Assembly (NCBI GenBank): GCA_963760615.1 | Contig: CAVXDX010000006.1 | Location: forward strand, 1 to 27,980 | Direction: 5' to 3' | Length of the DNA: 27,980 bases | Origin: an uncultured Candidatus Micrarchaeota archaeon | GTDB lineage: Archaea; Micrarchaeota; Micrarchaeia; Burarchaeales; Fermentimicrarchaeaceae | In this document: in pieces, positions 5,386-25,940 of the stretch | Position numbering within the stretch: the first letter of the stretch is position 1 | How the letters are laid out: the number at the start of each line of letters is the position of its first letter | Translations under genes and position numbers: made by a program | Notes under the pieces: model-generated | The model's input: only the letters and a program-made list of their open reading frames with translations | Database searches by the model: none | Told to the model about the DNA's origin: nothing

Positions 5386-5493
5386 AAGGGGGGTAACTTT
5401 CCAGTGAAGGGTGTATGAGATCTCCCGCTCATGCTGTTAATCAAGGATTTCACAGTTATATTAATATTCTGGAGTTTACAGTTATATCTGGTA

Positions 5494-11048: not shown

Positions 11049-11415
11049 CCCCGACTGCATAGGCCGTGTATATCGTAGCAATTATCCCAATGAGAGGTAG
11101 GACATAGCCCATGATTAATTCTCCATTGCTTCTCCTCATGCTCACCTTCCTTTTTATCTGGTACGCATAGAAGAGCGCCTGCAGCAAAAAAAGAGAGAGC
11201 GTCATTGTGATGAAGGCGAGGTTGTTGTCGAGAGCAAACTCTGGAAACGTGACGTAGGAATTGATAACAGCCATCAGTCTGTCGGCTATATAAGAGAACA
11301 GGAAAAGTATTAGGGTTACCGATACTGCCCTCAGCAGATACATTGGCAGTATGGCCCTCCAGTCGTCAACTTCAGAGAATTTCCCGCGGATGTGCGAACC
11401 TTCGAATGTTTTCAT
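11041..11415 (-). CDS. Small membrane protein (about 3 TM), unknown function
   Basis: 124-aa ORF with three hydrophobic segments. Convergent 8-nt overlap with the glycosyltransferase. Divergent from the pilin promoter. Confidence 0.6.
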   Translation of the reverse strand: MKTFEGSHIRGKFSEVDDWRAILPMYLLRAVSVTLILFLFSYIADRLMAVINSYVTFPEFALDNNLAFITMTLSLFLLQALFYAYQIKRKVSMRRSNGELIMGYVLPLIGIIATIYTAYAVGAM

Positions 11416-11586: not shown

Positions 11587-11940
11587 ATGAAAGCAAAAAT
11601 GACGGCTTTGCTGTCCCTTGCCTTGTTTGCAGGGCTGGTATCAGCAGGTGCAGTTACTCCTACAACAATGGCAGCGAGCATAGCAGCAGGTCTGTGCAGC
11701 TTTAAGGTGCTGGTTGTCGGTGTACTGCCAACTCTTGCCCTGATACTGTTCCTGTTTGCAGGGTTGTCCTATGCAGCTGGTCAAGCATTCGGTGCTGAGA
11801 CCAAGGCAAAGGCACAGGGCTGGGCAATGTCCCTTCTGGTTGGAGGGATAATTGGTATAATCCTTGCAGTGCTGGCACCAATACTGGCAAGCATATTCGT
11901 CGGTATGGCAACAGGCCAAATGGTAGCATCAGCTTGCTAA
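11587..11940 (+). CDS. VirB2/TrbC-like (T4SS-type) pilin 1
   Basis: 117 aa. Sec-type signal (..GLVSA|GA), then two hydrophobic helices joined by a short basic loop (QAFGAETKAKAQGW), which is VirB2-like topology. No class III signal peptide. Only two Cys (C37 and terminal C117). Confidence 0.75.
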   Translation: MKAKMTALLSLALFAGLVSAGAVTPTTMAASIAAGLCSFKVLVVGVLPTLALILFLFAGLSYAAGQAFGAETKAKAQGWAMSLLVGGIIGIILAVLAPILASIFVGMATGQMVASAC

Positions 11941-11950
11941 GAAACCACTC

Positions 11951-11979
11951 TTTTTATTTTTTATTTTTCATATTTTTAT
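11951..11979 (+). terminator. Oligo-T archaeal terminator after pilin 1
   Basis: Four T5-T6 runs starting 11 nt after the stop codon. Confidence 0.7.
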
Positions 11980-12094
11980 CGTAGATCAGAATGGAGAAGA
12001 GTCAAAAAATGATTTTTATGTTGGCAAATACCTGGATGGTCATCCTACCGTTATCTTTTTATTCTCCCTATTCCATATAATAGTGGTGATTGTA

Positions 12095-12454
12095 ATGAGA
12101 AATCATACAAAAATGGTTTTTATCCTGTTGCTGCTGAGTTTATCGCATGCAGCCTTCGCTGCTGCAACTCTTACTGCCATGGCAGCTAATATAGCAGCTG
12201 CCCTCTGCGGCTTCCAGACGCTTGTGTATACAATCCTGCCAACCCTTGCCCTCATAATGTTCCTGTTTGCAGGTTTGGCATATGCAGCTGGTCAGGTATT
12301 CGGAGCAGAGATGAGAGCAAAGGCACAGGGCTGGGCAATGTCCCTTCTGGTTGGAGGGATAATCGGAATATTCATAGCAGTGCTCGCCCCAATACTTGTG
12401 GATATATTCGTAGGCATGGACCCGGCGCTGAGAACCCATATGCCTACATGCTAG
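12095..12454 (+). CDS. VirB2/TrbC-like pilin 2, paralog of pilin 1
   Basis: Same core (LPTLALIxFLFAGLxYAAGQxFGAExxAKAQGWAMSLLVGGIIGI). Signal peptide ending AFA. Likely start ATG 12095 after GGTGA. Only two Cys, the second is the last residue. Confidence 0.75.
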   Translation: MRNHTKMVFILLLLSLSHAAFAAATLTAMAANIAAALCGFQTLVYTILPTLALIMFLFAGLAYAAGQVFGAEMRAKAQGWAMSLLVGGIIGIFIAVLAPILVDIFVGMDPALRTHMPTC

Positions 12455-12508
12455 GGGCAACCCACCTGCAATAATGCATGGGTGCACTGATGAGCTAAGT
12501 CAGGGGCA

Positions 12509-12516
12509 TTTTTTTT
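12509..12516 (+). terminator. T8 tract after pilin 2, possible terminator
   Basis: Run of eight T about 55 nt after the stop, preceded by an imperfect hairpin. Confidence 0.45.
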
Positions 12517-12538
12517 ATCATTCACTCACAGTTAGTTT

Positions 12539-12590
12539 TAAAAACCACCAAACCCAAATTATCAAATGCATACTGCCATGGTGGTTTTTA
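12539..12590. repeat. Perfect 12-bp inverted repeat upstream of the first VirB6-like gene
   Basis: TAAAAACCACCA (12539-12550) and TGGTGGTTTTTA (12579-12590) with a 28-nt spacer. The right arm contains GGTGG. Confidence 0.85.
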
Positions 12591-13525
12591 CAATGTTTCT
12601 TCAAATAGATTTGAGTGGTGGTGCATTTCTTGGTGGCTGGGAGGCAGCAGCCCTCACTGCGCTCCTGGTGTCATTCGGCATAATCGGAATTGGTTTTGCC
12701 ATAGGCATTGGATTCGGCTACCATGAGCTTGAGGAGTGGGCTAAGAAGGAGATGTATGAAATATTCATGAGTGGTGTTATTCTCGGAGTTCTAATAGCTT
12801 TCGTCAACATTCTGTTCGGCATATCAACCAACTTGGCTGGTGGCAATCCACTCGATGTAGCGCATAACTACTTGAATCAAATGCTGTTTGACACAGCTGG
12901 CACTTTCCTCCAGTTGTTCCTCTACAACATGTATATAGCCGCAGTCTCAACGCTGATGATAGGCTTCTTCATACCCATATCCATACCTCCTTGGATAACA
13001 ATACGAATCGGTTCCTATGTCATGCCCGAGGCAGGCTTCAGCGCTATGACGCTTGGGATAGATACCATATTCAATCTCATCTCCGTAATGCTGGCACTCA
13101 TACTCACCGAGCAGGTTCTTCTTGATTTCTTTAGGATTGTGATGTTCAAGTACATCCTCCCTCTTGGCGTTCTCATGCGAACTTTTCCACTCACAAGAGT
13201 TGCCGGCAGCACCATCATTGCGGTTGCAATAGGGGCTTACATAATATACCCGCTCTCAATAATATACTCCGCGCAGCTGTACAACAGCTTTAAGGCAGTA
13301 GCTGTGCCCGGGCAGCCAGGCAACCCAATGATGAACCTGGCATTCGGACCGCTGCTCTGGGATATCGCCGGCCCCATAGAGTCAATAGGCGATATGATGC
13401 GTAACTTCGTCATAGTAACAACCTGTTTCTTGGTGACCGTAGTCATAACGTTGTCCTCAGTACGTTCGCTTGCAGGTGTTCTGGGAGGCGACCCGGATTT
13501 ATTTGGGTTGGCCAGGTTGGTCTAG
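12566..13525 (+). CDS. VirB6/CedA-like polytopic membrane protein, paralog 1 of 6
   Basis: Family motifs EWAKKEMYE, LPLGVLMRTFPLTRVAGSTIIAVAIGAYIIYP and C-terminal LGGDPDLFGLARLV. The true start may be ATG 12593. Confidence 0.65.
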   Translation: MHTAMVVFTMFLQIDLSGGAFLGGWEAAALTALLVSFGIIGIGFAIGIGFGYHELEEWAKKEMYEIFMSGVILGVLIAFVNILFGISTNLAGGNPLDVAHNYLNQMLFDTAGTFLQLFLYNMYIAAVSTLMIGFFIPISIPPWITIRIGSYVMPEAGFSAMTLGIDTIFNLISVMLALILTEQVLLDFFRIVMFKYILPLGVLMRTFPLTRVAGSTIIAVAIGAYIIYPLSIIYSAQLYNSFKAVAVPGQPGNPMMNLAFGPLLWDIAGPIESIGDMMRNFVIVTTCFLVTVVITLSSVRSLAGVLGGDPDLFGLARLV

Positions 13526-13533
13526 GTGGTAAA

Positions 13534-14544
13534 ACGAAACTGAACCCATTCATGGTATTGCTTGTATTCATTGCTATTGCAAATATTTCATCTGCGGGTG
13601 TTGTATGCCCCCCAAATCCACCATACCCACCCTGCTGCATAAGCAGTGAGTGGTGGACAGGCGGTTGGATCTATCTGGTCTTCATCGGAATATCCACCAT
13701 TCTCCTGTCTCTCTCGCTTGTATTCATGGTTTCCCAGATAACTGGAAAACACGAGTGGGTTGTTTGGATAAAGGACGAGTTCTACCAAACAATAATCTCC
13801 GTTATCATAGTTATCCTTCTCGTCATGGTACTCACTCTGGTATGTAACATCTTTAGCAATATTGCTGGAGGCGACCCCTTTGTCATTGCCCACGCCTACT
13901 TGAACGATCTTGTCTGGAGCAGGACGATCAACGATGCAATAAACGCATTCCAGGCCAGCCTGCTGTGTCAGATAGTTGCCGGTTACAAGACCCACATGGG
14001 GCCCAAATCTCTGGGGACAACCTACAGCCAGCATATGGGCCTTAGAACAGTTGCAACCAACTTTGACTTCCTCTACACTCTCTTCGTAGGGCTCTCAGCA
14101 AGCCTCATGATCCAGGATATAGGGCTGTCAATAATACAGGCATTCGCTTTCAGGATAATGCTTCCTCTGGGAATACTCTTCAGGGTGTTCCCATTTCTAA
14201 GAAAGGCGGGAGCCATGCTCATAGCCCTGGCGCTTGGGCTGTACATAGTGTTCCCCCTGTGCTTTGTGATGGACAAAATGATAGTGGATTCAATACTCAG
14301 CGATCCAGCCATGAGCGGTGTTTTCATAAAGACTGACACCCAGCTGACTGCAATGGCAGGGTCGCTGGTGCTGTACTTCATATCACCGTTCTTGCCGTGG
14401 GCGATGATGACCCTTATCCTTCTTATGCAGGAGGCGGCGAGGCTGTTGCCCCAGGCAATCTTCCTTCCGACATTGAACCTTGTTATAACCCTCACGTTTG
14501 TGAAAAACGCAACAAGGGTTTTAAGCCAGAACTTCACAGAGTGA
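13534..14544 (+). CDS. VirB6/CedA-like membrane protein, paralog 2 (start probably ACG 13534; first ATG is 13552)
   Basis: VWIKDEFYQ and LPLGILFRVFPFLRKAGAMLIALALGLYIVFP. N-terminal signal peptide followed by a Cys/Pro-rich segment. Lacks the family C-terminal tail motif. Confidence 0.65.
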   Translation, partial: TKLNPFMVLLVFIAIANISSAGVVCPPNPPYPPCCISSEWWTGGWIYLVFIGISTILLSLSLVFMVSQITGKHEWVVWIKDEFYQTIISVIIVILLVMVLTLVCNIFSNIAGGDPFVIAHAYLNDLVWSRTINDAINAFQASLLCQIVAGYKTHMGPKSLGTTYSQHMGLRTVATNFDFLYTLFVGLSASLMIQDIGLSIIQAFAFRIMLPLGILFRVFPFLRKAGAMLIALALGLYIVFPLCFVMDKMIVDSILSDPAMSGVFIKTDTQLTAMAGSLVLYFISPFLPWAMMTLILLMQEAARLLPQAIFLPTLNLVITLTFVKNATRVLSQNFTE

Positions 14545-14548
14545 TAAC

Positions 14549-15757
14549 ATGGCCGTAGTAACCACCACAGCAGCATTCCAGAATATATGGAATAGCTGGC
14601 AGACAGTTGCCCTACTCGCAGCAGTGCTCTCTCTCTTGTTCGCAGCCCTTGGGTATATGCTGGCGCATCTATTCAAGCTGAAGAGCGTTGAGGTTTGGGC
14701 GAAGGAGGAGGTATACCAGGCTCTGGCAAGCGCGCTAATCATAGTCACCGCTGTAGCTGCGGTGACCGCCATAGTGAGCTTATCCTGCATTCTCACCAAC
14801 GGATGTGCTGCAAACCAGGACCATATGGACGTAGCAATACGCATAATGGACAACATGAAAAATAAAACAATTGAACAGACGCAGAACATCTTCTCCCTGA
14901 GTATGCGGGTGGGCCTCATAAAAGGCATGGGCAAGTATTACGACTTCACGTTCGGGCCCGACTCCGCTCCATGCCTGCTGGGGCACTGCCTAACCGCGTT
15001 TGGCTGGTCCTGGTATATGTGGGCCGGAGGCAGCGTAATATCAGATTCCCTGGACTACACGTTCTCAATACTGATTCCAATTGTCTCCAGCTTCTTCGCA
15101 CAGCTCTGGATGCTGAGGTTCATACAATCGACTCTCTTCCCAAGCCTTCTTGCTCTTGGTATAATACTCAGGACGTTCTTTTTCACAAGAAAGGTCGGCG
15201 GTCTGCTCATTGCAATAGCACTCGGAGTGTATACTGTTTACCCGCTCATGTACATAATGCTTGCCAGTTATATGGACTTCACCCCGCGCCAATTCTACTA
15301 CCCGAACAATGACCTGTCTCACTCCTATGCGTTCATCTCATGCGCTGGGGGTGAGTTTATGCCGGGTGGGTCGAATCCCAACACGCCCTGGTGCACGGGG
15401 TTTGCTGGTATGCTCTCCTACATAATACCTGGGCTCCCCACAGCTGCTGGAAATTTTCAATCGGCTGATTTCATGTTCAAGAATGGCTGCGTAGCCCCCA
15501 CTGCAACCTATGATGGATGCCCGGGCTCCTCATGCCCCAGCACTCCGGGGTTCTGCAGCGCAAATCCCCTGCCTCCAGATGTGTATGCAGGCATGCGAAG
15601 CTCATATGATGGTGTGCTCCCAATAGTTGGCTACCTCCTGGTGCCGGCAGTTTTCATCCCCCTCATCATAATCCTTGTAACCATATCATTCATAAGGATC
15701 CTCTCGCCAATGCTGGGAGGAGATGCTGAAATAGCTGGCTTGACCAGAATCCTGTAG
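14549..15757 (+). CDS. VirB6/CedA-like membrane protein, paralog 3, with a large Cys/Pro/Gly-rich insert
   Basis: VWAKEEVYQALAS, LGIILRTFFFTRKVGGLLIAIALGVYTVYP and C-terminal LGGDAEIAGLTRIL. Confidence 0.65.
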   Translation: MAVVTTTAAFQNIWNSWQTVALLAAVLSLLFAALGYMLAHLFKLKSVEVWAKEEVYQALASALIIVTAVAAVTAIVSLSCILTNGCAANQDHMDVAIRIMDNMKNKTIEQTQNIFSLSMRVGLIKGMGKYYDFTFGPDSAPCLLGHCLTAFGWSWYMWAGGSVISDSLDYTFSILIPIVSSFFAQLWMLRFIQSTLFPSLLALGIILRTFFFTRKVGGLLIAIALGVYTVYPLMYIMLASYMDFTPRQFYYPNNDLSHSYAFISCAGGEFMPGGSNPNTPWCTGFAGMLSYIIPGLPTAAGNFQSADFMFKNGCVAPTATYDGCPGSSCPSTPGFCSANPLPPDVYAGMRSSYDGVLPIVGYLLVPAVFIPLIIILVTISFIRILSPMLGGDAEIAGLTRIL

Positions 15758-15765
15758 GTGTAAGA

Positions 15766-16704
15766 ATGGCAGTTATAGTATGGGCAGACTGGTACTCGAT
15801 AACCTTCGTGGTGATATCTGCGACCATGGCTCTCGTCGCACTGGCGTACATGGTAGGTATAGGCTTCCACCTGCCCAAGCTTCAGGCATGGGCCAAGGAG
15901 GAGTTCTACCAGGCTCTGGCAAGCGCGCTAATAGCGGTTTTGTTCATATCGTTTGTATCAACAATAAAAACCACAATGCAGAACCTATACGGGGGGGACC
16001 CATTCCAAATAGCAAGTACCTACATAGGAAAAGTTATCTCGAGTCTTACTGTTCTTTTCATGGCGGTGGTTGGAACCGATGTTCCCTTTTCCCTTATGCA
16101 GAGCCTGACTTTCAAGGCAATGCCGAGCCAGATGGGCTTCAGCATAAACCCATTCATAGGCCTGACAACGCTGACGTCCATGCTCTCCCTAATGATGGAA
16201 GGGATTCTGGGAGCAATGGCCGTAATGCTCAGCCAAGGCACCTTCCTTTTGTTCATCCAATACCAGCTTCCAATTATCTTCCCGATTGGAATAGCCCTGA
16301 GAGCATTTCCATGGACTCGGCATGCTGGCGGCGCTCTCATTGCAATATTCTTTGGCTTCTACATTTTCTACCCATTCCTGTGGGTCTTCAATAGCGCAAT
16401 CTATGACGAAACTATCCAGCAACTCAGCTTCATGGGTGCAGCTCGCAATTTCGTTAACGCTCTCGGTATAGGAGCGGGCTGTATCGAAAACCCAACTACC
16501 TGCTTAACAAATGTTCCGGATTTTGGCGCGAATATAATGCTTGCATTGATCAACTTAATTGCCTACCCCGTAATAGCCCATCTCTTCATATTCGCTATCT
16601 TGCTCCCACTCTTCAACCTTTTAACAGTGCTTATACTGATTAATGAACTTGCCAAGATATTCGGTTCTGAAATAGATCTTGGAGGACTGCAGGGGTTGAT
16701 ATGA
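15766..16704 (+). CDS. VirB6/CedA-like membrane protein, paralog 4
   Basis: AWAKEEFYQALAS, FPIGIALRAFPWTRHAGGALIAIFFGFYIFYP and C-terminal FGSEIDLGGLQGLI. Confidence 0.65.
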   Translation: MAVIVWADWYSITFVVISATMALVALAYMVGIGFHLPKLQAWAKEEFYQALASALIAVLFISFVSTIKTTMQNLYGGDPFQIASTYIGKVISSLTVLFMAVVGTDVPFSLMQSLTFKAMPSQMGFSINPFIGLTTLTSMLSLMMEGILGAMAVMLSQGTFLLFIQYQLPIIFPIGIALRAFPWTRHAGGALIAIFFGFYIFYPFLWVFNSAIYDETIQQLSFMGAARNFVNALGIGAGCIENPTTCLTNVPDFGANIMLALINLIAYPVIAHLFIFAILLPLFNLLTVLILINELAKIFGSEIDLGGLQGLI

Positions 16705-17744
16705 AAGCTTCCAAAAAACTCACAGCCTGCCTGCTGGTTCTAGCCATGGCTCTGGCTGGCTGCACCGCAGCAGGAGGGACTCTGACAGTGAAGCCCGCAT
16801 GTAGTGCAGGAGCTGTAAGCGGTGACTTTGTTAGTATGTGGACCACAAATTGGCAGGGCATAGCCTTTCTTGCAGCTTCAACTGTTTGGGTGGTGAGCAT
16901 ATTTGCCTATGTTCTTGGTTACGTCCTGAACCATCAAAAAGTGATAATATGGGCGAAGGAGCAGATGCAGGAGGCAGTCCTTGCCATGGCCATCACGCTG
17001 TTCGTGGTTGGCTTCGTGTCATTCCTCTGCAGTGTTGATCTGAATTCTCTTGGCATAGGTCCAGCATGCGGCGTAAACAGCGGCAATTTTGTTGATGTTG
17101 GATTTGGGTGCCTCGCTTCAATGTACTCAACAGTGATGAGTGGCTACCTACTAGTAATTGGAATCAACACTGCGCTAAGCGCGGCAGCAACAATAACTGT
17201 GGGTTTTGCCCCAGGTGGAGTCGGGCCGATTTTCGCGCCATTCGCATTCCTGGCTGAAATTGCAAATTCATTCCTGCTTGCAACCATTGCCCTGCTAACA
17301 AGCTTAGTTTTCACAATGACTCAGATGATACTTTTGAAGATGACCGGGAGCATGTTCGTCATACTCTTTCCCATTGGCGTCATCCTAAGGTCCTTTGGTG
17401 CAACTAGAGGTTTCGGAGGTGGTCTCATAGCCATAGCACTTGGGTTCTTCCTCTTCTACCCCCTGCTGATAGTGCTTTTCTACGCATCAGTAACTGGGGA
17501 TATTTCTGACGACTTCACCAACCTCAACGAAGCGTTTAAAAATGCAGGGCCCTCGCCAACCAGCCCCGATTGGTTTATGGGCGGCGGTCTGCTTAATTAT
17601 TTCGTAGGGTTCGTAGGTAAAACTATAATGGGAGCAATTATCCTACCTTTAATAATGTTCATGGTCCTCATAGCATTTGTAAAAGGGCTATCCATGGCCC
17701 TTGGAGAGGAGGTCGACGTGAGTAACCTCACGAGACTTATATAG
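16701..17744 (+). CDS. VirB6/CedA-like membrane protein, paralog 5, with an N-terminal lipobox-like signal
   Basis: MKASKK...MALAG|C21, IWAKEQMQE, FPIGVILRSFGATRGFGGGLIAIALGFFLFYP and C-terminal LGEEVDVSNLTRLI. ATGA overlap with paralog 4. Confidence 0.65.
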   Translation: MKASKKLTACLLVLAMALAGCTAAGGTLTVKPACSAGAVSGDFVSMWTTNWQGIAFLAASTVWVVSIFAYVLGYVLNHQKVIIWAKEQMQEAVLAMAITLFVVGFVSFLCSVDLNSLGIGPACGVNSGNFVDVGFGCLASMYSTVMSGYLLVIGINTALSAAATITVGFAPGGVGPIFAPFAFLAEIANSFLLATIALLTSLVFTMTQMILLKMTGSMFVILFPIGVILRSFGATRGFGGGLIAIALGFFLFYPLLIVLFYASVTGDISDDFTNLNEAFKNAGPSPTSPDWFMGGGLLNYFVGFVGKTIMGAIILPLIMFMVLIAFVKGLSMALGEEVDVSNLTRLI

Positions 17745-17752
17745 GTGAGAAA

Positions 17753-18761
17753 ATGATGCTTCAGATATGGTGGGCAGAACCTTGGAATTCAGGAGCCCCC
17801 GTTGATGTGGGGGGAACCTGGAATGTGTGGCAGCCCATAGCGCTGTTGGCAGTCACCACGGCCTTCCTAGTCGTTGCACTTTCCTACATGCTTGGGGTGA
17901 CATTCAATCTTGACGGTTTAAGGAAATGGGCCAAGGCTGAGTTCTACCAGGCTCTGGCAAGTGCGGTTCTGGTAGTGTTCCTGCTTTTCCTGATGGACAT
18001 TATGGTCAACCAAGGTTTTCAGACGATGATTGGCGGGATGAACCCATACAAGAAAGCCTATGCGTACCTTGATGGAGTCATGGACTCCCTCTATGCCATA
18101 TACATAAACGTCTACAACGTAAACTTCCCAATTGAGTTCCTCTCAACGTTCTCATTCTACTTCAACGCAGCCGGTCTTGATTATGCACCGTTCGAACTCG
18201 TCCTCAGCCCCATAATCGAGCAACTGCACTTCCAGGCCCATGTGGTAACAATTGCCGCAATCTCAACAGCATCGCAGAAAGCACTCATACATTTATTCTA
18301 CAACACAGGGTTCTCAGTCTTCATACCCGCGGGTGTTCTGCTCAGGATATTCCCATGGACTAGAGGGGCGGGTGGCCTGCTCATAGCGCTGGGAATTGGT
18401 CTTGCAGTGGTATATCCAGTCATGTTCACCTACGTGGCTCTCATGTCCGAGAACCCATCGGAGGTCCAGAGACAGGCATCCCAGCTCGGCAATAGCATAG
18501 GGGGATTCGATCTTACTCAATACGGCGCGTGCGCGAGCGATTTTCAAAATGCGACTGATGTCGCAACCAACAAGGTTCCTCTCCCCGCAACTTAGGAACT
18601 CATCCGCCTGGCTTCTTGGCTGGCTCTCCGGTGTGTGGCTGAAAATATTCTACTACCCCATGCTGGTGCTCCTCGTAACCTTCACATTCATAAGGACAAT
18701 AGCTCCATTGTTAGGTGCGGATATAAGTGATATAGGACAGGGGATAATCAGGATACTGTAG
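17753..18761 (+). pseudogene. VirB6/CedA-like membrane protein, paralog 6, interrupted by a one-base frameshift near 18575
   Basis: KWAKAEFYQALAS and IPAGVLLRIFPWTRGAGGLLIALGIG are in ORF 17753-18595. The family C-terminus (FIRTIAPLLGADISDIGQGIIRIL) is in ORF 18549-18761. Removing one base gives 335 aa. Confidence 0.75.
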
Positions 18762-18769
18762 GTGGTTCT

Positions 18770-19585
18770 TTGCAGATAGAGAGGAAAACAGCCCTTGGAT
18801 GCATTGGCATAAGCGCATTCCTGCTACTGCTGACTTTAATTGTAGGCGGGCTGGGGTGGATTGCGGGGCTCGTCCTGATACTTGCTGCCGCCTTCTCAAC
18901 AACAGGCTTGATTCTTTTCAAGTACGGCTACTGGATAGTCCCCTTCCTCACAAGGAGGGTGAGGGTGATAGATGTCATAGAAGAGCCCTATGAAATATCT
19001 TCAGCGCAGGATGCGGTCATCAAGAAAGTTGGCAATACCTACTACGCCTCGGTGTTTGTTCATGTAAGAGTATATGAATCCGCGACAGAGAAAAGCGATG
19101 AGGAAAAGGTTGCATACATGGATTTGTGGGAGAGGACAATCTCAGGTTTGAAGTTTGTTACGAAGTTTTGCATATCCTCCTATGTTAAGGATCTAACAAA
19201 ATACAAAAGCATCATTGAGGGCAAGAAGGCCGATGCCCAGCTCAGGCTTGCAAACGAACGTGGCAAACCAGAGCCAAGCGAAGCGGAGTTGGATAAGATT
19301 GAGAGAGAGATAGCAATGTGGGATAACATGTTTTCAAAACTTAATACGGGGGGCAACCCCATAACGCAGATAACCTACGTAATGACTTCTGGGCAAGGCC
19401 CAACACCTGAAATGGCTTTAGCTGCTGCGAAAAATCAGGCAAACGAGATAAAAACCACAATATCAACTACTCTCAATGCCGAGGTTGCGGTGCTTACAGG
19501 GGATGATATGAAGAGATGTTTTGAGTGGGAGTACATGCTGCCTCCTATGATAAGAGAGGATGTGGTTGCCCAAGAGGGAGTTTAA
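18770..19585 (+). CDS. Membrane-anchored protein resembling a PrgI/VirB3 anchor plus the non-catalytic VirB4 N-terminal (TraC-like) region, paralog A
   Basis: TTG start, two N-terminal TMs, then a soluble alpha/beta domain with a coiled-coil hairpin. Shares QD-YY-YES-YMDLWER-KFC-AQLRL-ERE-GxDMKxCFEWE-PP with the next ORF. The family assignment is inferred from layout and position. Confidence 0.55.
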   Translation: MQIERKTALGCIGISAFLLLLTLIVGGLGWIAGLVLILAAAFSTTGLILFKYGYWIVPFLTRRVRVIDVIEEPYEISSAQDAVIKKVGNTYYASVFVHVRVYESATEKSDEEKVAYMDLWERTISGLKFVTKFCISSYVKDLTKYKSIIEGKKADAQLRLANERGKPEPSEAELDKIEREIAMWDNMFSKLNTGGNPITQITYVMTSGQGPTPEMALAAAKNQANEIKTTISTTLNAEVAVLTGDDMKRCFEWEYMLPPMIREDVVAQEGV

Positions 19586-20410
19586 ATGCCGGCAATAAGC
19601 ATTGGGATAAACGAGAAGACAATCACAGCTGCTGCTCTGGGCGTAGCCTTCCTATCCATGATGCTCGGAATCTCGGCATCGGGGCTGGGCCTATTCAAAA
19701 TAGTCGTAGTCCTGTTTTGCATTTTCTTCCTTGCGTTGGACGCTGTTGTCTACCAGCTGGGCTTCATCATTCTCCCTTTCATAACGAAGGTTCTGAGAGT
19801 GAGGGAGATACGGGCTGGAGGCTTCGAAGTTCCCCCCTCGCAGGATGTCATACTCAAGAGCGTTGGCGGTGTTTATTACGCAACGCAATTCCTTTATGCA
19901 AGGTTATACGAGTCCGCATCTGCAGGTGTTCAGGAAGAGCAGTCATCATACATGGATTTGTGGGAAAGGGCAGTGGCGAGCATGGATTTTCCATTCAAAT
20001 TCTGCGTGCTCTCCTACCTGGAAGATATCCTGAAATTCAGGGAGGATGCGGAAACAAAGAGGGCGGCAGCTCAGCTGAGGCTCGGAAGGGAAAGGGAGAA
20101 ACCGCGTCCAGACGCAATAACCATAGACAAATGGGAGAGGGAAGTTGCAAAGCAGAATGCGCTGCTCGCGAGGCTCTCATCAGGGGAAAAACCATTGGGA
20201 ACGTTAATGTATGCTATGACTATTTCAGTCGGCGTAAGCCCCGAGGCAGCCACAGCTGCAGTGAAAGGACAGACTAATGAGCTGAAAGCGGCTTTCTCCA
20301 ATGCTCTCAATGTAGAGATGCTTGAACTGAAAGGAGAGGACATGAAGAAATGCTTTGAGTGGGAAGTGGCATTCCCCCCAACACTTAAAGATTTAAAAGG
20401 CTCGATATAA
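19586..20410 (+). CDS. Paralog B of the 18770 protein
   Basis: Colinear similarity to paralog A over the whole soluble domain. A 19-nt DNA identity (CATACATGGATTTGTGGGA) covers YMDLWE. Confidence 0.55.
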   Translation: MPAISIGINEKTITAAALGVAFLSMMLGISASGLGLFKIVVVLFCIFFLALDAVVYQLGFIILPFITKVLRVREIRAGGFEVPPSQDVILKSVGGVYYATQFLYARLYESASAGVQEEQSSYMDLWERAVASMDFPFKFCVLSYLEDILKFREDAETKRAAAQLRLGREREKPRPDAITIDKWEREVAKQNALLARLSSGEKPLGTLMYAMTISVGVSPEAATAAVKGQTNELKAAFSNALNVEMLELKGEDMKKCFEWEVAFPPTLKDLKGSI

Positions 20411-20420
20411 AGGTGTATCC

Positions 20421-21950
20421 ATGGGAGTGTTAAAAGTCCAATCTGTAATGAGCAATGAGCTTGCCAAGAGGCCACTGTTTGTGAGGCCTCCTGAGCCACC
20501 AGCAGAGTACATAGCCCTTGACCCTTCCAATTCAATCTATGTTGGGAAAACGAGAATATTCCATGTTCCTTTCAACTGGTCCTACCAATACCTGACAAAC
20601 CCGCACATATGCATCGTGGGGATAACCGGTGCGGGAAAATCTTACTTCGTCAAAACCTTCCTGTCAAGGGCTGCCTTCGTCTGGGGAAGCAATGCCATAA
20701 TAATTGACTGGGCTGGGGAGTACAGGGCATGGGTCAAGCAGACAGGGGGAAGGGTAATCGCCCTCGGTAAGGGGGATTTCATAAATCTCATGGATCTGGG
20801 AGGAATGAAGCCGCTTGACAGGGTGAAGCAGATTATAAGGACTCTTGAGATACTCACAGACATAGGTCAGTACCCGGAGCAGAGGAGGCTGACAGAACAG
20901 GCTCTTGAGGAAACTTACACGGAAGCTGGCTTCAAGCTCAATGAAACCGAGCACAAGGGCTCTGATGGAAACCCGCTGCCTCCCCCCACCCTGAAGGATG
21001 TGGTGAAGATACTGGAGGACAAGCTCAAGGCAGGCACCTATGAGTTCCCAGCGGAGCTGGAGAATGCTGTATACCGCTTGAGGAACTTCTGCAGGCCAGG
21101 TGAGGATTATTTCGCCCAGCAGAGCACAGTGAAGCTTGAGGAGCTGACAGAAGTGGGACTGGTGGATGTTGACATGAGCGGACTTCCTGACGAGGTTATG
21201 AGAGGATTAGCAGGTCTATTTGTGCTCCAGTTCCTCAAGGAGAAGATGAGGTCCACGGGATGGACCGCAACCAAGGGCTTAAGGGTGTTTGTAGTGCTCG
21301 ATGAGGCCTGGAAGATAGCGAAGGACGAGAGGTCGGATGCAATAATGATTGTGAGGGAGGGAAGGAAGTATAACTTCGGCCTTATAGTCGCATCGCAGAA
21401 CCCCACCGACATACACGAGACCATATTCTCCAATGTTGGGACAACTTTCATCCTGAGAGTGAAATTCCAGAACTTCCTGGATTATATTCAAGGCTCGCTC
21501 AACTTCAGCGATTATATGAGGGGCGAGATAAGCAAGTTCGGCGTGGGACAATGTGCCGTGAACATGGCATTCCAGACCAGCACAAGATTCCCCGAAACAT
21601 TCCTGCTGGAGAAGATTCATGGTGAAGAGCCTCTTGAGGAGTACTCCCTTGATGTGCAATCCATACTCACCCAGGCTCAGCTGGCGGATGAGGATGTCCC
21701 TCAGAATTATGCCTTTGAAAAAAATGAGCTGAAGAACAAGCTCACTGAATTTGGAATGGATGATATACGCGCATCCGAACTGATAAATATGTTTAACAGG
21801 AATAACAAGCGCATGGATATACTCAGCTTTGTGGAGTTTCTCGAGAAGAACGACCTCGCAAGAGGAAATATAACTTCATTCCTGAAGGGGGTCGGCATGG
21901 AGGATTCCATGATAATAGACATACTGAACAGGATAGGCGTTGGAGGGTGA
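20421..21950 (+). CDS. VirB4/HerA/FtsK-superfamily ATPase (CedB/VirB4-like)
   Basis: NPHICIVG then Walker A GITGAGKS (20619-20642), IIIDWAGEY, Walker B VVLDEAW, arginine finger REGRKY and sensor ASQNP. No TM. About 80-aa helical C-terminal extension. Confidence 0.9.
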   Translation: MGVLKVQSVMSNELAKRPLFVRPPEPPAEYIALDPSNSIYVGKTRIFHVPFNWSYQYLTNPHICIVGITGAGKSYFVKTFLSRAAFVWGSNAIIIDWAGEYRAWVKQTGGRVIALGKGDFINLMDLGGMKPLDRVKQIIRTLEILTDIGQYPEQRRLTEQALEETYTEAGFKLNETEHKGSDGNPLPPPTLKDVVKILEDKLKAGTYEFPAELENAVYRLRNFCRPGEDYFAQQSTVKLEELTEVGLVDVDMSGLPDEVMRGLAGLFVLQFLKEKMRSTGWTATKGLRVFVVLDEAWKIAKDERSDAIMIVREGRKYNFGLIVASQNPTDIHETIFSNVGTTFILRVKFQNFLDYIQGSLNFSDYMRGEISKFGVGQCAVNMAFQTSTRFPETFLLEKIHGEEPLEEYSLDVQSILTQAQLADEDVPQNYAFEKNELKNKLTEFGMDDIRASELINMFNRNNKRMDILSFVEFLEKNDLARGNITSFLKGVGMEDSMIIDILNRIGVGG

Positions 21951-21954
21951 GGGA

Positions 21955-22254
21955 GTGGCAAAGTCATACCCCTTTGACAAGAGTGATTTGAGAAAGAAGC
22001 TCAAGCTGTTCGGCCTTAGCGATGCGCATCTAGAGGAAATTATAACAATGTTTGACAAGAAGAATAAGCGCATGGATGTGGTGGCGTTTGTGCTCAACCT
22101 AGAGAAGTTCGGGGTCACCAGGGCGCAAATTTCCAATTTTCTTAAAGACCTTGGAATAGAAGAAACAACTCTCATGAGCGTGTTCTCAAGAACTGACTTC
22201 AAGAAGGCGGGAGTTGATGATAAAAAGATTCAGGAAGTTGTGCTGAAAGGATGA
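21955..22254 (+). CDS. Small protein homologous to the ATPase C-terminal domain
   Basis: 31 of 77 residues identical, ungapped, to ATPase residues encoded from 21705 (hand alignment). Likely start GTG 21955 (GGTG-N5). Confidence 0.85.
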   Translation: MAKSYPFDKSDLRKKLKLFGLSDAHLEEIITMFDKKNKRMDVVAFVLNLEKFGVTRAQISNFLKDLGIEETTLMSVFSRTDFKKAGVDDKKIQEVVLKG

Positions 22255-22258
22255 TATT

Positions 22259-22624
22259 GTGAAAAAATCCATCTGCATAGTCTGCAAGAAAGAGAAGAAG
22301 GGAAGCAGGGTTGAGAATGATCTATACCTAGACACAATAAGAAAGATAAAGAACAGGCTGGGCATCGCCAGGAATAACACGCTCGTTGTATGCAAGGATT
22401 GCCTTCCCAAAGCAGAGGAGAAGAGGAAGAGGTTTGAGAGAACACTGATGACCTGGACTATCCTCGCAATTCTGTTATTTATCATGCTTGTCGTCATGTC
22501 TCAAACTCTTCAGGCTATCTTCTATGGTCTTGCATTAGCAGTTGTCTTCATTCTATTCTCGCTCATACTATACTTCCCAAGAGTTGAGGAACATGGCGGA
22601 AAAAAAAGAGGAAGCGTCGGCTGA
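22259..22624 (+). CDS. Small Zn-ribbon (CxxC...CxxC) protein with two C-terminal TM helices
   Basis: CIVC and CKDC motifs, a basic linker, then two hydrophobic segments. GTG start. Confidence 0.75.
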   Translation: MKKSICIVCKKEKKGSRVENDLYLDTIRKIKNRLGIARNNTLVVCKDCLPKAEEKRKRFERTLMTWTILAILLFIMLVVMSQTLQAIFYGLALAVVFILFSLILYFPRVEEHGGKKRGSVG

Positions 22625-23369
22625 GAAGAAGGAGCTCAGGAAGGAACTCAAGGACGAGGTTCCCGCACCGCAGGTTGCCGGCTTCAGGCTCCCGGCTAGG
22701 AGAGTAAAGGATTTGAGCGAGATAACAAGTGCGCTCTCTATGCTCAGCTCAATCCAGCTGGCCGTCGAAGGCGACTATGTAGCCGCGCTGAATGTTGAGA
22801 GCAGGGATATACGAAAGAGCCCCTATCTATTCTCAACGGTGTACTTCAGGCCCAGCGAGATAGAGGTTGTATACACGATAGTGCCTGGCATAAGCAAGAG
22901 GAAGAGGAACATAGAAGTGCTCAAGCATTTCCTGAACATCCTGACCCTAATGGGACATAACTACGAGATAGACAACAAGCAGCTCTACCAGATTATAAGG
23001 AATTACCTGACCGAAATAACGGAATTCGCCACGTCCACCTATGATGAGATATATGCAAAATACGACATGCTGAACAATGAATCCCTCTCACTCCAAAGGA
23101 AGATTGAGAACCTCAATGCCTCTCTTGCCAAACTCACAAAGGAGACAATAGAACTGAACGCAAAGAATGATGAGCTTGTATTGAGGCTGAAAGAGCTTGA
23201 ATCGCCATCTGATGATACTCTCAAAGTGAAAATACAGGAGTGGCTGGAGCTGCATAACAACGAGATAAACATAACTGAATTCGCAAAGGTATACAACGTT
23301 CTGGAATCCCGGGTGGAGCACCTGCTCAACGCAATGGTCACGCAGGGCAACCTTGAGTACATAGGGTAA
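22593..23369 (+). CDS. Cytoplasmic protein: alpha/beta domain, coiled coil, C-terminal winged helix
   Basis: Likely start ATG 22593. Heptad region YDEIYAKY...LKELE. The C-terminus IQEWLELHNNEINITEFAKVYNVLESRVEHLLNAMVTQGNL fits a wHTH pattern. Confidence 0.75.
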   Translation: MAEKKEEASAEKKELRKELKDEVPAPQVAGFRLPARRVKDLSEITSALSMLSSIQLAVEGDYVAALNVESRDIRKSPYLFSTVYFRPSEIEVVYTIVPGISKRKRNIEVLKHFLNILTLMGHNYEIDNKQLYQIIRNYLTEITEFATSTYDEIYAKYDMLNNESLSLQRKIENLNASLAKLTKETIELNAKNDELVLRLKELESPSDDTLKVKIQEWLELHNNEINITEFAKVYNVLESRVEHLLNAMVTQGNLEYIG

Positions 23370-23373
23370 GACG

Positions 23374-23571
23374 ATGGAGCAACCCCCCAGCAGTGAAATA
23401 CTGGAATCCCGGTTCAGGAAAGAGACCTATCTACTCCGCGTAAAAAAGAGATTCCAGAACACCAAGCATTTTGTAATAAAAAAAAGGTATAAGGAGGAGG
23501 AGAATCCGCTGGGTGAGAAAGTCCTTGCGCTATTCAAGAAGATGGGTTGGATCAAAGAGGGTCAAAGATGA
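23374..23571 (+). CDS. Small basic hypothetical protein (65 aa)
   Basis: Fills the gap between co-oriented genes, starting 4 nt after the upstream stop. ATGA overlap with the next gene. Confidence 0.6.
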   Translation: MEQPPSSEILESRFRKETYLLRVKKRFQNTKHFVIKKRYKEEENPLGEKVLALFKKMGWIKEGQR

Positions 23572-25940
23572 GGAGGAGAAATCTAGTAATACTCATCGCG
23601 ATTCTCCTAACTGTTGGGCTAACCAGCCTGTTGCTTCTGCTGCTTTTCATCCTGTCCATAAATGTCCGCCCGCCTACTCCAGTTAACTCCAGCGTGGAGC
23701 TTAATGTTCTAGACTCCGGTGTAGTCGACTACGGAAGCTCCAGCAAGGTGGTATACCTGCTCACTCAGGTAAATGGAAAGGACATCACAAATGTAGATAT
23801 AAACGTCAGCCTCTATGACAGTGAGCTGCCACGCGACATATACCTACTTGACTACTCAAGCCCAGGCTTTTCAGGTTGCACAGAATGTGAGGGTCTGCCA
23901 GACTTCAGGAAATCGCTGGAAACAACATTCAAAACATACGGGTTGATAGATATCAACTCCACACTCAACCAGATAAAAATAAACCAGCTTGACAGGCTGA
24001 CTCACCGTTCGATACTCATAGTTCCAACTGGTAAAATACCCGCCCAGCTTGTCGGGCTTGAAAGCGGCCCTGACCTCAAAGATTTTATGAGCAGAGGTTT
24101 TGTTGTAATATTCCTGGGGCGTGATCTTGACGAGGCATTCTACAGGAATGGTTCAGTTGTGCGCATACCCAATGACAATCTTAGCTCCTACGGCATCTAC
24201 TATCAGTCCAGGCCTGACTTGTATACTTGCGAGGGATACAGACTCCAAAACCCCAACTTCGTCATTTCAAACCATATGGTGGCATGTTCCATGTCATACG
24301 TGAAGAATGGGGAGGGGTATTTCTTTGTTCTCCCCAGGAGCATTGACATAGGTTGGAGTGGCAATGGAAGCGCTGCTGGGGAGGATGTAGGGCGTCTAGT
24401 ATACAGCGTGGAATGGAAGGACCCATTAACCAAAGGCAACTTGAGGATACCCGCACAAAGAATCAACGAATCCAATTCCAACACTTCCATGATATTCCTG
24501 TCTCCGCACCCCTCTGATTCGGGGTGGGCGAGGATATACATCAACGCAACTACGCTCAACGGCACTTCCCTGCTCTCCGTTACGGATAGGAGAATAAACA
24601 ACCCAGTTCGGGGGAAGATGATCCATAAACCGCAGGCCGTGGGGAATGACAATATACTCATCGACTTCGAGTTCTCTGAAAACTACCCCACCTCCCGCGA
24701 TGTCAACATAAGCGTGGCTGTGTACCAAGATATGAAGTTTATTGAGAGGCAACCAGCCAGTACAATCAAAATTCAGAATGAATACACCTTCACAAGCACC
24801 TTTCTCGTTAACCTTTCAGTCGGCAACTACACGCTCAGGGCACTGGATGATTACGGCCACATATACGCCCAGTCTTTCCTCAGCATTCCGCCAATCTCCC
24901 TCGCAATGAAGCCTGACTGGATTGACGAGCCACAGATTTTCTATTTCACTTTATCCGTGCCAAAGGACCCACTCTCAGCTACAAGTGAATCTGAAGGTCT
25001 GCCATACAGGACAGCTTATGTAACAGCAAACAATACCCCCGGCGTGAACCTCTTCCCGCCTCTCTCCAACATATCAGATGCTGGGGGGAAGTTCTCCGTC
25101 TCGCCGAGCCAGCCACTTACTTTTGGTTTCTATACATTCAAAGTGAATATAAGCAGGCAGACGCTAAACATTTCCGCAACCTACAAAAAACCCGCCTCAT
25201 GGCTGGATAACCCGGTCAATATTGTCATAATCATTGCAACTGTCATAATTGCCATAGTTGCAGTCGCTCTGAGAAAACCTGAGAAACCGGTCTACACAAT
25301 AGACGTACCAGATTTCCCACCCCTCGAAAAAGTCGTAGTTCCCATTTCAAAATTCTCCATACTCAGCCTGTTCGACTCTGTGAACAAGGAGTACAAGTGG
25401 AGTTTCATGCCACTCAGCCCCCAGGAGCTGAAGAACGAGATGAGGAAGAAAATAACCTACAAAGGCGTGCCAATCCTCATAACTGACTACAACCTGGACA
25501 AGATACTGGAAGAGCTTATAAAGAGCGGCGATGTTGCAAAGGCGCTCAACTTCTATGGCCTAAAGACATGGGAGAATAAAAGCGGCAGAGATATGAGATA
25601 TCTCGCCCTGTTCCGGTTGCTGAGAAACTTCTTCATAAACAATGCAATACCGTTCACAGACTTGAACCAGAGAAAGGACTGCGACATGCTCGCAAGTGTC
25701 AAGGGCGAGGGGCTCTACACGCATATATACACTGATGAAACTACATTAAAGAAAGCGCTTGGGCTCACCGAAGTTGGAAAGAATTTCATCGTTTTTGAGA
25801 GCAGGAAGGAGCTGGAGGAGGTTCTGAAGAAGCTAGACCTTTCATACAGCCCGCTGGCAGTTATCCTCAAGTCTGAAATAGGCACTGGTGTCATCCAGCT
25901 AGTACATCCAGGCAATTTCAGTGAGATGCTGGGCAGATAG
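23568..25940 (+). CDS. Large two-TM membrane protein with a glycosylated external region and a ~220-aa cytoplasmic C-terminal region
   Basis: Likely start ATG 23568 (MRRRNLVILIAIL...). Dense N-x-S/T sequons up to the second TM (NIVIIIATVIIAIVAVAL), then a Lys/Glu-rich domain with almost no sequons. Confidence 0.85.
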   Translation: MRRRNLVILIAILLTVGLTSLLLLLLFILSINVRPPTPVNSSVELNVLDSGVVDYGSSSKVVYLLTQVNGKDITNVDINVSLYDSELPRDIYLLDYSSPGFSGCTECEGLPDFRKSLETTFKTYGLIDINSTLNQIKINQLDRLTHRSILIVPTGKIPAQLVGLESGPDLKDFMSRGFVVIFLGRDLDEAFYRNGSVVRIPNDNLSSYGIYYQSRPDLYTCEGYRLQNPNFVISNHMVACSMSYVKNGEGYFFVLPRSIDIGWSGNGSAAGEDVGRLVYSVEWKDPLTKGNLRIPAQRINESNSNTSMIFLSPHPSDSGWARIYINATTLNGTSLLSVTDRRINNPVRGKMIHKPQAVGNDNILIDFEFSENYPTSRDVNISVAVYQDMKFIERQPASTIKIQNEYTFTSTFLVNLSVGNYTLRALDDYGHIYAQSFLSIPPISLAMKPDWIDEPQIFYFTLSVPKDPLSATSESEGLPYRTAYVTANNTPGVNLFPPLSNISDAGGKFSVSPSQPLTFGFYTFKVNISRQTLNISATYKKPASWLDNPVNIVIIIATVIIAIVAVALRKPEKPVYTIDVPDFPPLEKVVVPISKFSILSLFDSVNKEYKWSFMPLSPQELKNEMRKKITYKGVPILITDYNLDKILEELIKSGDVAKALNFYGLKTWENKSGRDMRYLALFRLLRNFFINNAIPFTDLNQRKDCDMLASVKGEGLYTHIYTDETTLKKALGLTEVGKNFIVFESRKELEEVLKKLDLSYSPLAVILKSEIGTGVIQLVHPGNFSEMLGR

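Follow-up and report, generated by a model that had tools for sequence, protein, structure and literature searches.

A chromosomal gene cluster of the Micrarchaeota resembling a type IV secretion apparatus, with an apparently split VirB4 and six membrane paralogues

A run of 16 co-oriented genes in an uncultured archaeon raises the question of whether Micrarchaeota possess a resident cell-envelope machine descended from a conjugation apparatus, or whether such a cluster is the remnant of a mobile element. The cluster (11587-25940, plus strand) comprises two pilins, six membrane paralogues, two anchored paralogues, an ATPase and five accessory genes (g1 to g17, Table 1), with the gene content, the order and the single frameshift already described in an earlier reading made from the DNA letters (the sequence-only reading). 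The window analysed here is the entire contig C6, 27,980 bp, of a 1.14-Mb genome (G000; 16 contigs, 91% complete). Because it is one whole contig, that a gene is not visible in the window says little alone. The organism, rightly taken before for a probable DPANN archaeon, is a member of the Micrarchaeota (the phylum is presently named Microcaldota by NCBI) and of the genus ‘Candidatus Fermentimicrarchaeum’. The near-closed, two-contig genome of ‘Candidatus Fermentimicrarchaeum limneticum’ (G002), from the same genus, served as synteny reference. The g12 ATPase is 89% identical to its copy in that genome, and almost all other named matches are from Micrarchaeota.

Given the analyses presented below, we consider it very likely that the cluster is chromosomal and derived from a type IV secretion system (T4SS). 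Its products, including the array of six membrane paralogues, probably belong to one machine. On balance we favor a resident, vertically inherited envelope machine that originated from a conjugation or T4SS apparatus, a sister kind to the systems called Ced and Ted, belonging to neither. To our knowledge, no machine dedicated to transfer has so far been defined in the Micrarchaeota. A full-text literature search found no description of this system in the phylum, and public records name its proteins hypothetical, HerA or ATP-binding.

Pilins, ATPase parts and the membrane array

The two pilins, each of about 120 residues, are 79% identical over their core. Among the 17 family members in the pilin alignment (A2), nine match the Pfam family T4SS_pilin (PF18895; best E 7.6e-7) and five match TrbC/VirB2 (PF04956). 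On its own, g2 scores E 7.7e-4 and 19.9 bits against T4SS_pilin, under the cut-off of 26.6. The best match of the A2 profile in the PDB is TrwL of R388 (E 0.064), and an hhalign comparison of the two gives E 2.6e-4. The family qualifies as the VirB2/TrbC-type pilin of conjugative T4SS. Two cysteines, one near the mature N-terminus and the other the last or next-to-last residue, are both present in 15/17 members and both absent from the remaining two. This pairing suggests, from the alignment, a disulfide joining the two ends of the pilin, and is loosely reminiscent of the T- and P-pilins, which are cyclized head to tail. A scan of NCBIfam returned no match for g1 or g2, for the array paralogues (g3 and g5 among them), or for g10, g15, g17 and g18.

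The g12 protein is a P-loop ATPase of 509 residues that matches DUF87, AAA_10 (47.1 bits, cut-off 27.5) and the TraG P-loop family (40.2 bits, cut-off 25.8) above the Pfam cut-offs. Its residues 59-332 align with the C-terminal domain of VirB4 in the PDB (4ag5), and the ATPase alignment (A5) shows no variation at the Walker A and B residues. Against the NCBIfam models for CedD, CedB, VirB4 and HerA it scores 27.5-66 bits, far under every cut-off: 27.5 bits for TIGR00929 VirB4_CagE (cut-off 643), with the other VirB4 equivalogs also far below theirs; 42 bits for the HerA model NF040819 (cut-off 970) and 52 for NF040937 (cut-off 800); and 65.6 bits for CedB (NF041017, cut-off 700) and 65.8 for CedD (NF053655, cut-off 600). 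By these scores it is neither a HerA equivalog nor a Ced ATPase, and its sequence places it in the VirB4/HerA clade but in none of the named equivalogs of that clade.

The part of VirB4 that g12 lacks appears to be encoded separately. The g10 and g11 proteins are 38% identical, and each joins an N-terminal transmembrane hairpin to a soluble domain of ~200 residues. An AlphaFold2 model of g10, with a predicted local distance difference test (pLDDT) value of 75, was compared with known structures using Foldseek, and the ten best matches were all to TrwK/VirB4 of R388 (E 0.011, probability 0.99). VIA-align superposed model residues 71-260 on residues 220-377 of TrwK, its N-terminal domain, with Z 11.3 over 153 aligned residues. 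In a wide, Foldseek-independent search, TrwK was the only match that spanned the whole soluble domain. We also predicted a complex of this soluble domain with g12. It scored 0.73, a level reached by 58/80 solved complexes and 2/110 mismatched pairs, and the best control scored 0.00; separate runs agreed in ≥75% of contacts, with a partner pLDDT of 76-77. On g12, the predicted interface falls on residues 18-50, a conserved N-terminal arm. This docking is to be read as likeness, not as binding, and it may reflect the predictor's memory of solved VirB4 structures. Taken together, the models suggest that g10 and g11 each combine a VirB3-like anchor with a VirB4 N-terminal domain, that g12 is the motor, and that VirB4 thus appears to be split. 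The small protein g13 is 40% identical to residues 424-504 of g12, within its last ~90 residues.

The profile of this shared C-terminal domain gives weak matches to EF-hand pairs (E 4e-5) and to Topo V (E 0.13); an assignment as a DNA-binding helix-hairpin-helix was unsupported and was dropped. The orthologous ATPase of a relative from the same family, G006 (L021:6484-9627), is interrupted in frame by an intein that contains a LAGLIDADG homing endonuclease (Pfam Intein_splicing and LAGLIDADG_3) and is located ~75-85 residues into the open reading frame (ORF), at or just past the P-loop. Another ATPase (G019:C37:2707-5748) has an insert of ~1.5 kb at a different site, at about residue 291 near Walker B.

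The six array proteins are polytopic and share 20-29% pairwise identity, along with the motifs WAKxExYQ and LR-FP-TR-GG-LIA-G-Y-YP and a C-terminal LGG tail. They have no sequence match in Pfam or the PDB. A word-indexed protein search with the array profile (A3) retrieved 33 proteins; all those named by their source are called ‘hypothetical protein’, and all named organisms are Micrarchaeota. A full HMMER search with the same profile retrieved 3356 representatives. We modeled g6 (AlphaFold2, pLDDT 78.5). Its best Foldseek match in the PDB is TrwI/VirB6 (E 0.24, probability 0.82), and the three best VIA matches are chains of R388 TrwI (Z 9.4, 8.7 and 8.6; 236/261 residues aligned). A wide structure search over 48,161 chains ranked DotA of Legionella first (Z 9.0) and TrwI second (Z 8.0), and a structure search of a protein atlas returned only unnamed Micrarchaeota clusters at a template-modeling (TM) score >0.5. 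Since the best fold matches of the model in all three PDB searches are T4SS channel proteins, an affinity to VirB6 is suggested.

The arrays that we examined always contain six genes in identical order. In a quick tree, in which the rows from one genome (G030) sit on long branches, the array proteins group by position and not by genome: the tree needs 9 label changes, where the minimum is 5 and the mean after shuffling is 31. Clades were recovered for position 6 (8/8 rows, SH-aLRT 98), position 3 (7/7 rows, SH-aLRT 94), position 5 (7/8 rows, SH-aLRT 98) and position 2 (7/8 rows, SH-aLRT 99). Because the paralogues are orthologous by position across distant families, sequence comparison indicates that the set of six is ancient and that each member is non-redundant, which is what a complex of fixed composition predicts.

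Single array paralogues in some genomes bear very large lineage-specific extensions or inserts, which bring the whole protein to as many as 1352 residues. Examples are G002:C1:36966-37880 (a 904-residue frame), G006:C2:195451-196365 (a 633-residue frame), L057:3519-7451 and a further case in L059. The extensions are presumably external and would give the array a variable, surface-exposed face.

The sequence-only reading had called for the folds to be compared with VirB2, VirB6 and VirB4. The comparison was run for g6 and g10 and gave TrwI/DotA and TrwK, respectively, as best matches, with moderate scores for g6. Of the T4SS-like parts that had been claimed, VirB2 is supported by sequence and VirB4 by both sequence and the fold of its N-terminal domain, and VirB6 is supported by fold only. 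The split architecture proposed for the ATPase also stands, in a wider form than had been thought, with g10 and g11 as the apparent missing N-terminal part of VirB4 and g13 as a duplicate of the C-terminal domain of g12.

Chromosomal residence and distribution

The genes immediately upstream of the cluster encode an isoleucyl-tRNA synthetase (IleRS), an aspartyl-tRNA synthetase (AspRS) and a PMT-family glycosyltransferase, and the GC content across the cluster is 0.44-0.51, without a break, in agreement with the housekeeping synthetases and even composition noted before. The stretch from IleRS to g17 is syntenic with the reference genome G002. The whole cluster is syntenic in four genomes of the same genus or family (G001, G002, G003 and G006), with protein identities of 56-93%, and more loosely so in G007 and G008. 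Upstream of the cluster, G002 has glycosyltransferases, an ABC exporter, RFC, IleRS and AspRS; on the downstream side come two giant surface proteins, a small DUF87 ATPase, Memo, UbiX and UbiD. Neither flank contains a gene for an integrase, a relaxase, Rep or partition.

An ordinary integrative and conjugative element (ICE) or plasmid remnant, with its relaxase, coupling protein and att sites lying beyond the contig, would account for a cluster of this kind in a 28-kb contig, whose flanks are unseen in this assembly, and contig C8 of this genome does carry a VirB4/pilin locus flanked by integrases. Yet the cluster in G002 lies between housekeeping and surface genes, and the window of G000 has no tRNA gene, no direct repeats bracketing the cluster, no att-like repeat nearby and no GC break. 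We searched the 91%-complete genome for VirD4 (PF02534) and for one relaxase family (PF03432) and found no match to either; PF10412 gave only P-loop matches under the cut-off. The absence of a relaxase and VirD4 reported for the window therefore extends to the genome for these two families, while the absence of integrases does not, as they occur in G000 on contigs C8 and C14 only.

We surveyed 401 genomes of the phylum, 188 of them of high quality; the tallies include two unpublished genomes (G056 and G216). Orthologues of the ATPase were found in 341/401 genomes and in 168/188 of those of high quality. Their identity to g12 tracks taxonomy, at 88-93% within the genus, 70-87% within the family, 64-68% within the order and 58-65% within the class. 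This distribution and trend fit vertical inheritance and bring the mobile-element explanation, judged from sequence, close to exclusion. The sequence-only reading had named in advance what would mark an ordinary ICE, namely a relaxase, a coupling protein and att sites just outside the window together with patchy spread. The flanks in G002 lack the first two, no att-like repeat lies near the cluster, the distribution is broad, and the view of the locus as resident is upheld; we regard the ICE or plasmid remnant as largely refuted and scarcely credible.

The array family is present in 351/401 genomes. ATPase and array follow one presence/absence pattern at the family level: the large families that have one have the other, both were not found in families f10, f21, f23 and f24, and in f18 both occur in a single genus (g97). 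This co-occurrence is supportive and not a statistical proof, as related genomes are not independent. In families other than f1, a compact core makes up the ATPase locus: a pilin, one g10/g11 protein, the ATPase, sometimes g13, and then g14, g15 and g17. Because array and ATPase modules are unlinked outside f1, we infer their physical association from co-occurrence.

Two other VirB4-type loci were observed in the genome. On contig C8, a second T4SS-like module (G000:C8:59688-66890; L048:7688-14890) encodes an 805-residue VirB4-like ATPase with a TraG P-loop, a 530-residue protein with a weak match to PrgI (VirB3-like), two further proteins (537 and 92 residues), a pilin-like protein of 102 residues and a DNA methylase. 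Tyrosine-recombinase genes (C8:48853 and C8:73468) flank the module, which is probably an integrated element. Contig C7 encodes a full-length VirB3-VirB4 fusion of 884 residues (G000:C7:85162-87816; L049:8162-10816; Pfam PrgI, TraC_F_IV and TraG P-loop), ~85 kb away from the end of C7 to which the window is probably joined. Conjugation-type elements are thus not lacking in this organism.

Standing of the interpretation, related systems and possible function

Several results weigh against a single T4SS-derived machine. The likeness of the array to VirB6 is a likeness of fold only, at Z 8-9.4, where unrelated helical rows reach 7.8-7.9, and fold scores of this size between helical bundles can reflect a common arrangement. 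Searched against all PDB chains, neither the array profile (A3) nor the g10/g11 profile (A4) found anything usable, and hhalign gave probabilities of 0.3% for A3 against R388 TrwI and 0.25% for A4 against R388 TrwK, values for which a single-sequence template is weak and homology is still possible. In the wide search, TrwK ranks only 8th for g10 (Z 7.5), after short helical matches. The sixth paralogue is frameshifted in this assembly, and in this assembly only. The array lies beside the ATPase in family f1 only and elsewhere is found on a different contig, at times duplicated. G022 (L052:5636-6946) and G013 (L054:14019-15332), both of one genus, have a T2SSE-family ATPase (VirB11/PilB-type) directly after a stand-alone array, with FtsZ next, and the array could serve another motor. 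This T2SSE neighbor was unseen beside the other arrays examined.

On account of this neighbor, the array was also considered as a platform of the T2SSF/PilC type. As the main reading, this assignment was rejected on three grounds: there is no Pfam match to T2SSF, the T2SSE neighbor is absent from the other arrays examined, and the best folds are VirB6 and DotA.

Part of the above would be expected if the cluster were unrelated to T4SS, that is, if a HerA-type ATPase worked with unrelated, lineage-specific membrane proteins in another process such as DNA repair, defense or membrane remodeling, the likeness to T4SS being convergent or due to chance. The ATPase is publicly annotated as HerA, the HerA models score about as high as those of VirB4 and CedB (all far below cut-off), the fold matches of g6 are in a gray zone, and sequence profiles did not join A3 or A4 to the R388 proteins. 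On the other hand, three independent parts agree: the pilins by sequence, g10 by the fold of the VirB4 N-terminal domain and its predicted docking on g12, and g6 by the folds of T4SS channel proteins. In addition, no match to the HerA partner NurA or to a HAS-barrel was found in Pfam scans of the operon. We judge an origin outside T4SS to be improbable.

The Ced system of Sulfolobales, composed of CedA/CedE, CedA1/CedA2 and CedB/CedD (PMC9905601, PMC11868833, PMC11823120), is comparable as a chromosomal, domesticated archaeal T4SS derivative with VirB2-like pilins, more than one VirB6-like paralogue and neither relaxase nor VirD4. Its ATPases are of the VirB4 clade, and CedB and CedD divide the function of the VirB4 N-terminal domain between them (PMC11868833), a division of which the apparently split VirB4 of the present cluster is reminiscent. 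The cluster described here has six fixed VirB6-like paralogues, whereas Ced has two; a separate anchored protein, devoid of an ATPase domain, bears its putative VirB4 N-terminal domain; its pilins have a cleavable signal peptide and the conserved cysteine pair; g14, g15 and g17 have no Ced counterpart; and it has no known link to UV induction or Ups pili. The Ted system of Thermoproteales (TedA, TedB and TedC; PMC9905601) is likewise chromosomal and has a pilin whose signal peptide is cleaved, a channel protein resembling VirB6 and a VirB4-like ATPase. Unlike the present cluster, it has one TedA, a full-length VirB4-like TedB and often HerA, ParA and Rad50 as neighbors, and these neighbors are absent here. 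The earlier suggestion that the cluster does not match the Ced and Ted gene sets is borne out for Ced by the scores of ~66 bits against the CedB and CedD models; Ted is set apart by description. The cluster differs from both systems in its six VirB6-like paralogues, a VirB4 N-terminal domain that would act in trans, signal-peptide pilins with a cysteine pair, and three conserved partner proteins.

In comparison with the R388 Trw system (PDB 7O3V, 7O41 and 8RTD), g6 and g10 find their best fold matches in TrwI and in the N-terminal domain of TrwK, the pilin profile aligns with TrwL, and g12 matches the Pfam families TraG P-loop and AAA_10. In this operon, however, the searches made here recognized no VirB5, B7, B8, B9, B10, B11, VirD4 or relaxase. 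No mobile element carries the locus, VirB4 appears split, and VirB6 is multiplied sixfold, in contrast to the homo-pentamer of R388. Two systems of other ultrasmall or DPANN lineages are also pertinent. SPEARE of Nanohaloarchaeota (PMC10266531) ties a DPANN VirB4/TraG-type ATPase to giant immunoglobulin (Ig)-repeat surface proteins, with a proposed role in host interaction. There the ATPase domain forms part of the giant protein itself, and neither a pilin nor a VirB6-like array has been described; in our cluster the giant genes are separate, and adjacent in family f1 only. The T4SS of Patescibacteria (PMC12102498) is chromosomal, near-universal in an ultrasmall and mostly host-dependent lineage, and includes VirB4, VirB6-like and VirB2-like parts, but is bacterial, of the MPF-FATA type and equipped with full-length VirB4, and a six-paralogue array has not been described for it.

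From these comparisons we can propose how the machine might work. The g1 and g2 pilins would be processed and polymerize into a pilus or short conduit, and the six VirB6-like proteins (g3-g9) would form one membrane platform or channel of fixed composition; a ring of one copy each of the six paralogues would fit a hexameric motor. The g10 and g11 proteins would contribute the VirB3-like anchor and the VirB4 N-terminal domain, docking on the N-terminal arm of g12, with g14, g15 and g17 as partners particular to the lineage, at the cytoplasmic, membrane and external sides. Both the assembly of the pilus and the passage of a macromolecule between cells would be powered by the motor, DNA being the most plausible cargo because of the analogy with Ced and Ted (PMC9905601, PMC11868833). 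The hexameric stoichiometry, the formation of a pilus, the substrate and the direction of transfer are all elements that we infer. That the machine moves a macromolecule between cells at all is a serious possibility to which we incline slightly less than to its opposite; that the cargo is DNA, as the analogy would have it, is rather doubtful. The use of the machine as a conduit to a host cell, for the uptake of DNA or metabolites or for the delivery of effectors, as the sequence-only reading had proposed, is pure speculation.

We also considered a fuller version of this model, in which a hetero-hexameric VirB6-like channel is matched one to one to a hexameric split-VirB4 motor and, with a disulfide-stapled pilus, forms a general conduit of the Micrarchaeota for bringing in DNA or other macromolecules from a host cell or a sister cell. 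As a whole this version is unlikely. If true, it would represent a third, independently remodeled archaeal descendant of the conjugation machine, with a six-fold asymmetric VirB6 ring and a trans-acting VirB4 N-terminal domain, an architecture not known in any T4SS.

The main rival to a transfer machine is one for pilus assembly or adhesion, in which a VirB2-type filament, perhaps together with the giant Ig-like proteins, attaches the cell to a host or surface and nothing is translocated. In bacterial T4SS, VirB4 is known to energize pilus biogenesis. There is no coupling protein, relaxase or DNA-processing gene in or beside the operon, the giant Ig-like surface proteins follow it in family f1, and two separately transcribed pilin genes suggest a high demand for pilin. 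Nonetheless, neither Ced nor Ted has a coupling protein or relaxase, yet both import DNA (PMC9905601, PMC11868833). Moreover, six conserved and non-redundant VirB6-like subunits exceed the known needs of a pilus platform, and the giant proteins are adjacent in f1 only. We therefore hold a machine restricted to attachment to be unlikely, and continue to favor an envelope machine that is a sister kind to Ced and Ted.

The operon provides a concrete gene set, conserved over most of the sampled phylum, that bears on how DPANN archaea may obtain material from their hosts, and that can be tested in existing co-cultures (Mia14, ARM-1 and ‘Candidatus Micrarchaeum harzensis’). Several lineages that carry the system, for example ‘Candidatus Gugararchaeum’, are predicted to be metabolically self-supporting (PMC8561730), and for this reason its role may be the exchange of DNA within populations and not parasitism. 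The combination of a split VirB4 with a fixed set of six different VirB6-like subunits would widen the known range of T4SS designs, and the fixed set bears on how a VirB6 channel is matched to a hexameric motor.

Gene layout, accessory proteins and contig ends

From 12566 onward the genes are tightly coupled, as had been claimed: between g3 and g17, neighboring genes overlap by up to 47 nt or are separated by at most 26 nt, and GGTG-type ribosome-binding motifs are present. Each of g1 and g2 has its own AT-rich region upstream and T-rich region downstream. Alignment shows g8 and g9 to be a single gene broken by one extra base, which has an intact ORF in G001, G002, G003 and G006. The extra base may mark a true pseudogene or an assembly error; the assembly has other defects.

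Table 1. Genes of the cluster and the adjoining surface-protein gene, with positions in the window
Gene	Position	Strand	Description
g1	11587..11940	+	VirB2-like pilin: signal peptide, two hydrophobic helices, basic loop, C-terminal Cys; T-rich terminator
g2	12083..12454	+	Second VirB2-like pilin
g3	12566..13525	+	VirB6-like polytopic membrane paralogue, position 1, from paralogy and position-specific orthologues in other families
g4	13552..14544	+	Paralogue, position 2
g5	14549..15757	+	Paralogue, position 3; Cys-rich external insert
g6	15766..16704	+	Paralogue, position 4; structure-modeled member
g7	16701..17744	+	Paralogue, position 5; lipoprotein-like N-terminus
g8+g9	17753..18761	+	Paralogue, position 6; ORFs 17753-18595 and 18549-18761, frameshifted near 18576
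g10	18770..19585	+	VirB3-like transmembrane hairpin and VirB4 N-terminal-domain-like soluble domain (fold match)
g11	19586..20410	+	Paralogue of g10
g12	20421..21950	+	VirB4/HerA-clade ATPase, motor domain only, with ~90-residue C-terminal helical domain
g13	21940..22254	+	Stand-alone copy of the g12 C-terminal domain
g14	22259..22624	+	Small membrane protein: N-terminal CxxC...CxxC, two predicted transmembrane segments (read from sequence)
g15	22542..23369	+	Cytoplasmic coiled-coil protein; probable ATG start at 22593
g16	23374..23571	+	65-residue basic protein
g17	23547..25940	+	797 residues: N-terminal transmembrane segment, ~500 external residues, second transmembrane segment at ~550-579 (hydropathy)
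g18	25972..27980	+	Start of giant surface protein with Ig-like repeats, cut off by the contig end; possibly associated, family f1 only

Three of the accessory genes are retained well beyond the genus. A match to g15 is kept beside the ATPase in 18/18 loci of relatives, and matches to g14 and g17 (the latter after the ATPase) in 17/18 each, the exception in both cases being a divergent second locus of G030. The g15 protein gives only coiled-coil noise in Pfam, and its neighbors in the protein atlas are all hypothetical proteins of Microcaldota. No family was found for g17 by Pfam, NCBIfam or a protein-atlas feature search. Orthologues of g16 occur only in the closest relatives (G001, G002, G003 and G006).

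The g18 gene has weak Pfam matches to Big_3_5 and Big_1 and contains tandem repeats of 291 nt (27157-27738) and ~555 nt (26130-27159), which probably caused the contig break. By synteny with ORFs of 2707 and 1902 residues in G002, it continues on contig C3 (G000:C3:3770-18164), which encodes Ig-like and Cys-rich repeats. Giant ORFs follow g17 in family f1 only. At the other end of the window, IleRS lacks ~225 N-terminal residues; the missing part is found at C7:1174-2 and overlaps the copy in the window. Because the N-terminus of IleRS starts contig C7 and the giant surface proteins are on C3, the true contig order is, from sequence, probably C7-C6-C3, as in G002. Positions 1-2300 of the window are low in GC (39%) and hold minus-strand pieces of HMGL-like and aconitase/isopropylmalate-isomerase-type genes, broken across frames. 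This left end (the first ~2.3 kb) is probably a chimeric or misassembled join, or a strain-variant one.

Three further conserved genes in the window were noted. Two of them, at 5431-7368 (645 residues) and 8725-9498 (257 residues), have no Pfam family, lie amid the synthetase genes and are syntenic in G002, with 57% and 74% identity, respectively. The third, at 11041-11415 on the minus strand, encodes 124 residues, belongs to no known family, is divergent from the pilin gene in orientation, and occupies the same position in G002, G003 and G006 (44-53% identity).

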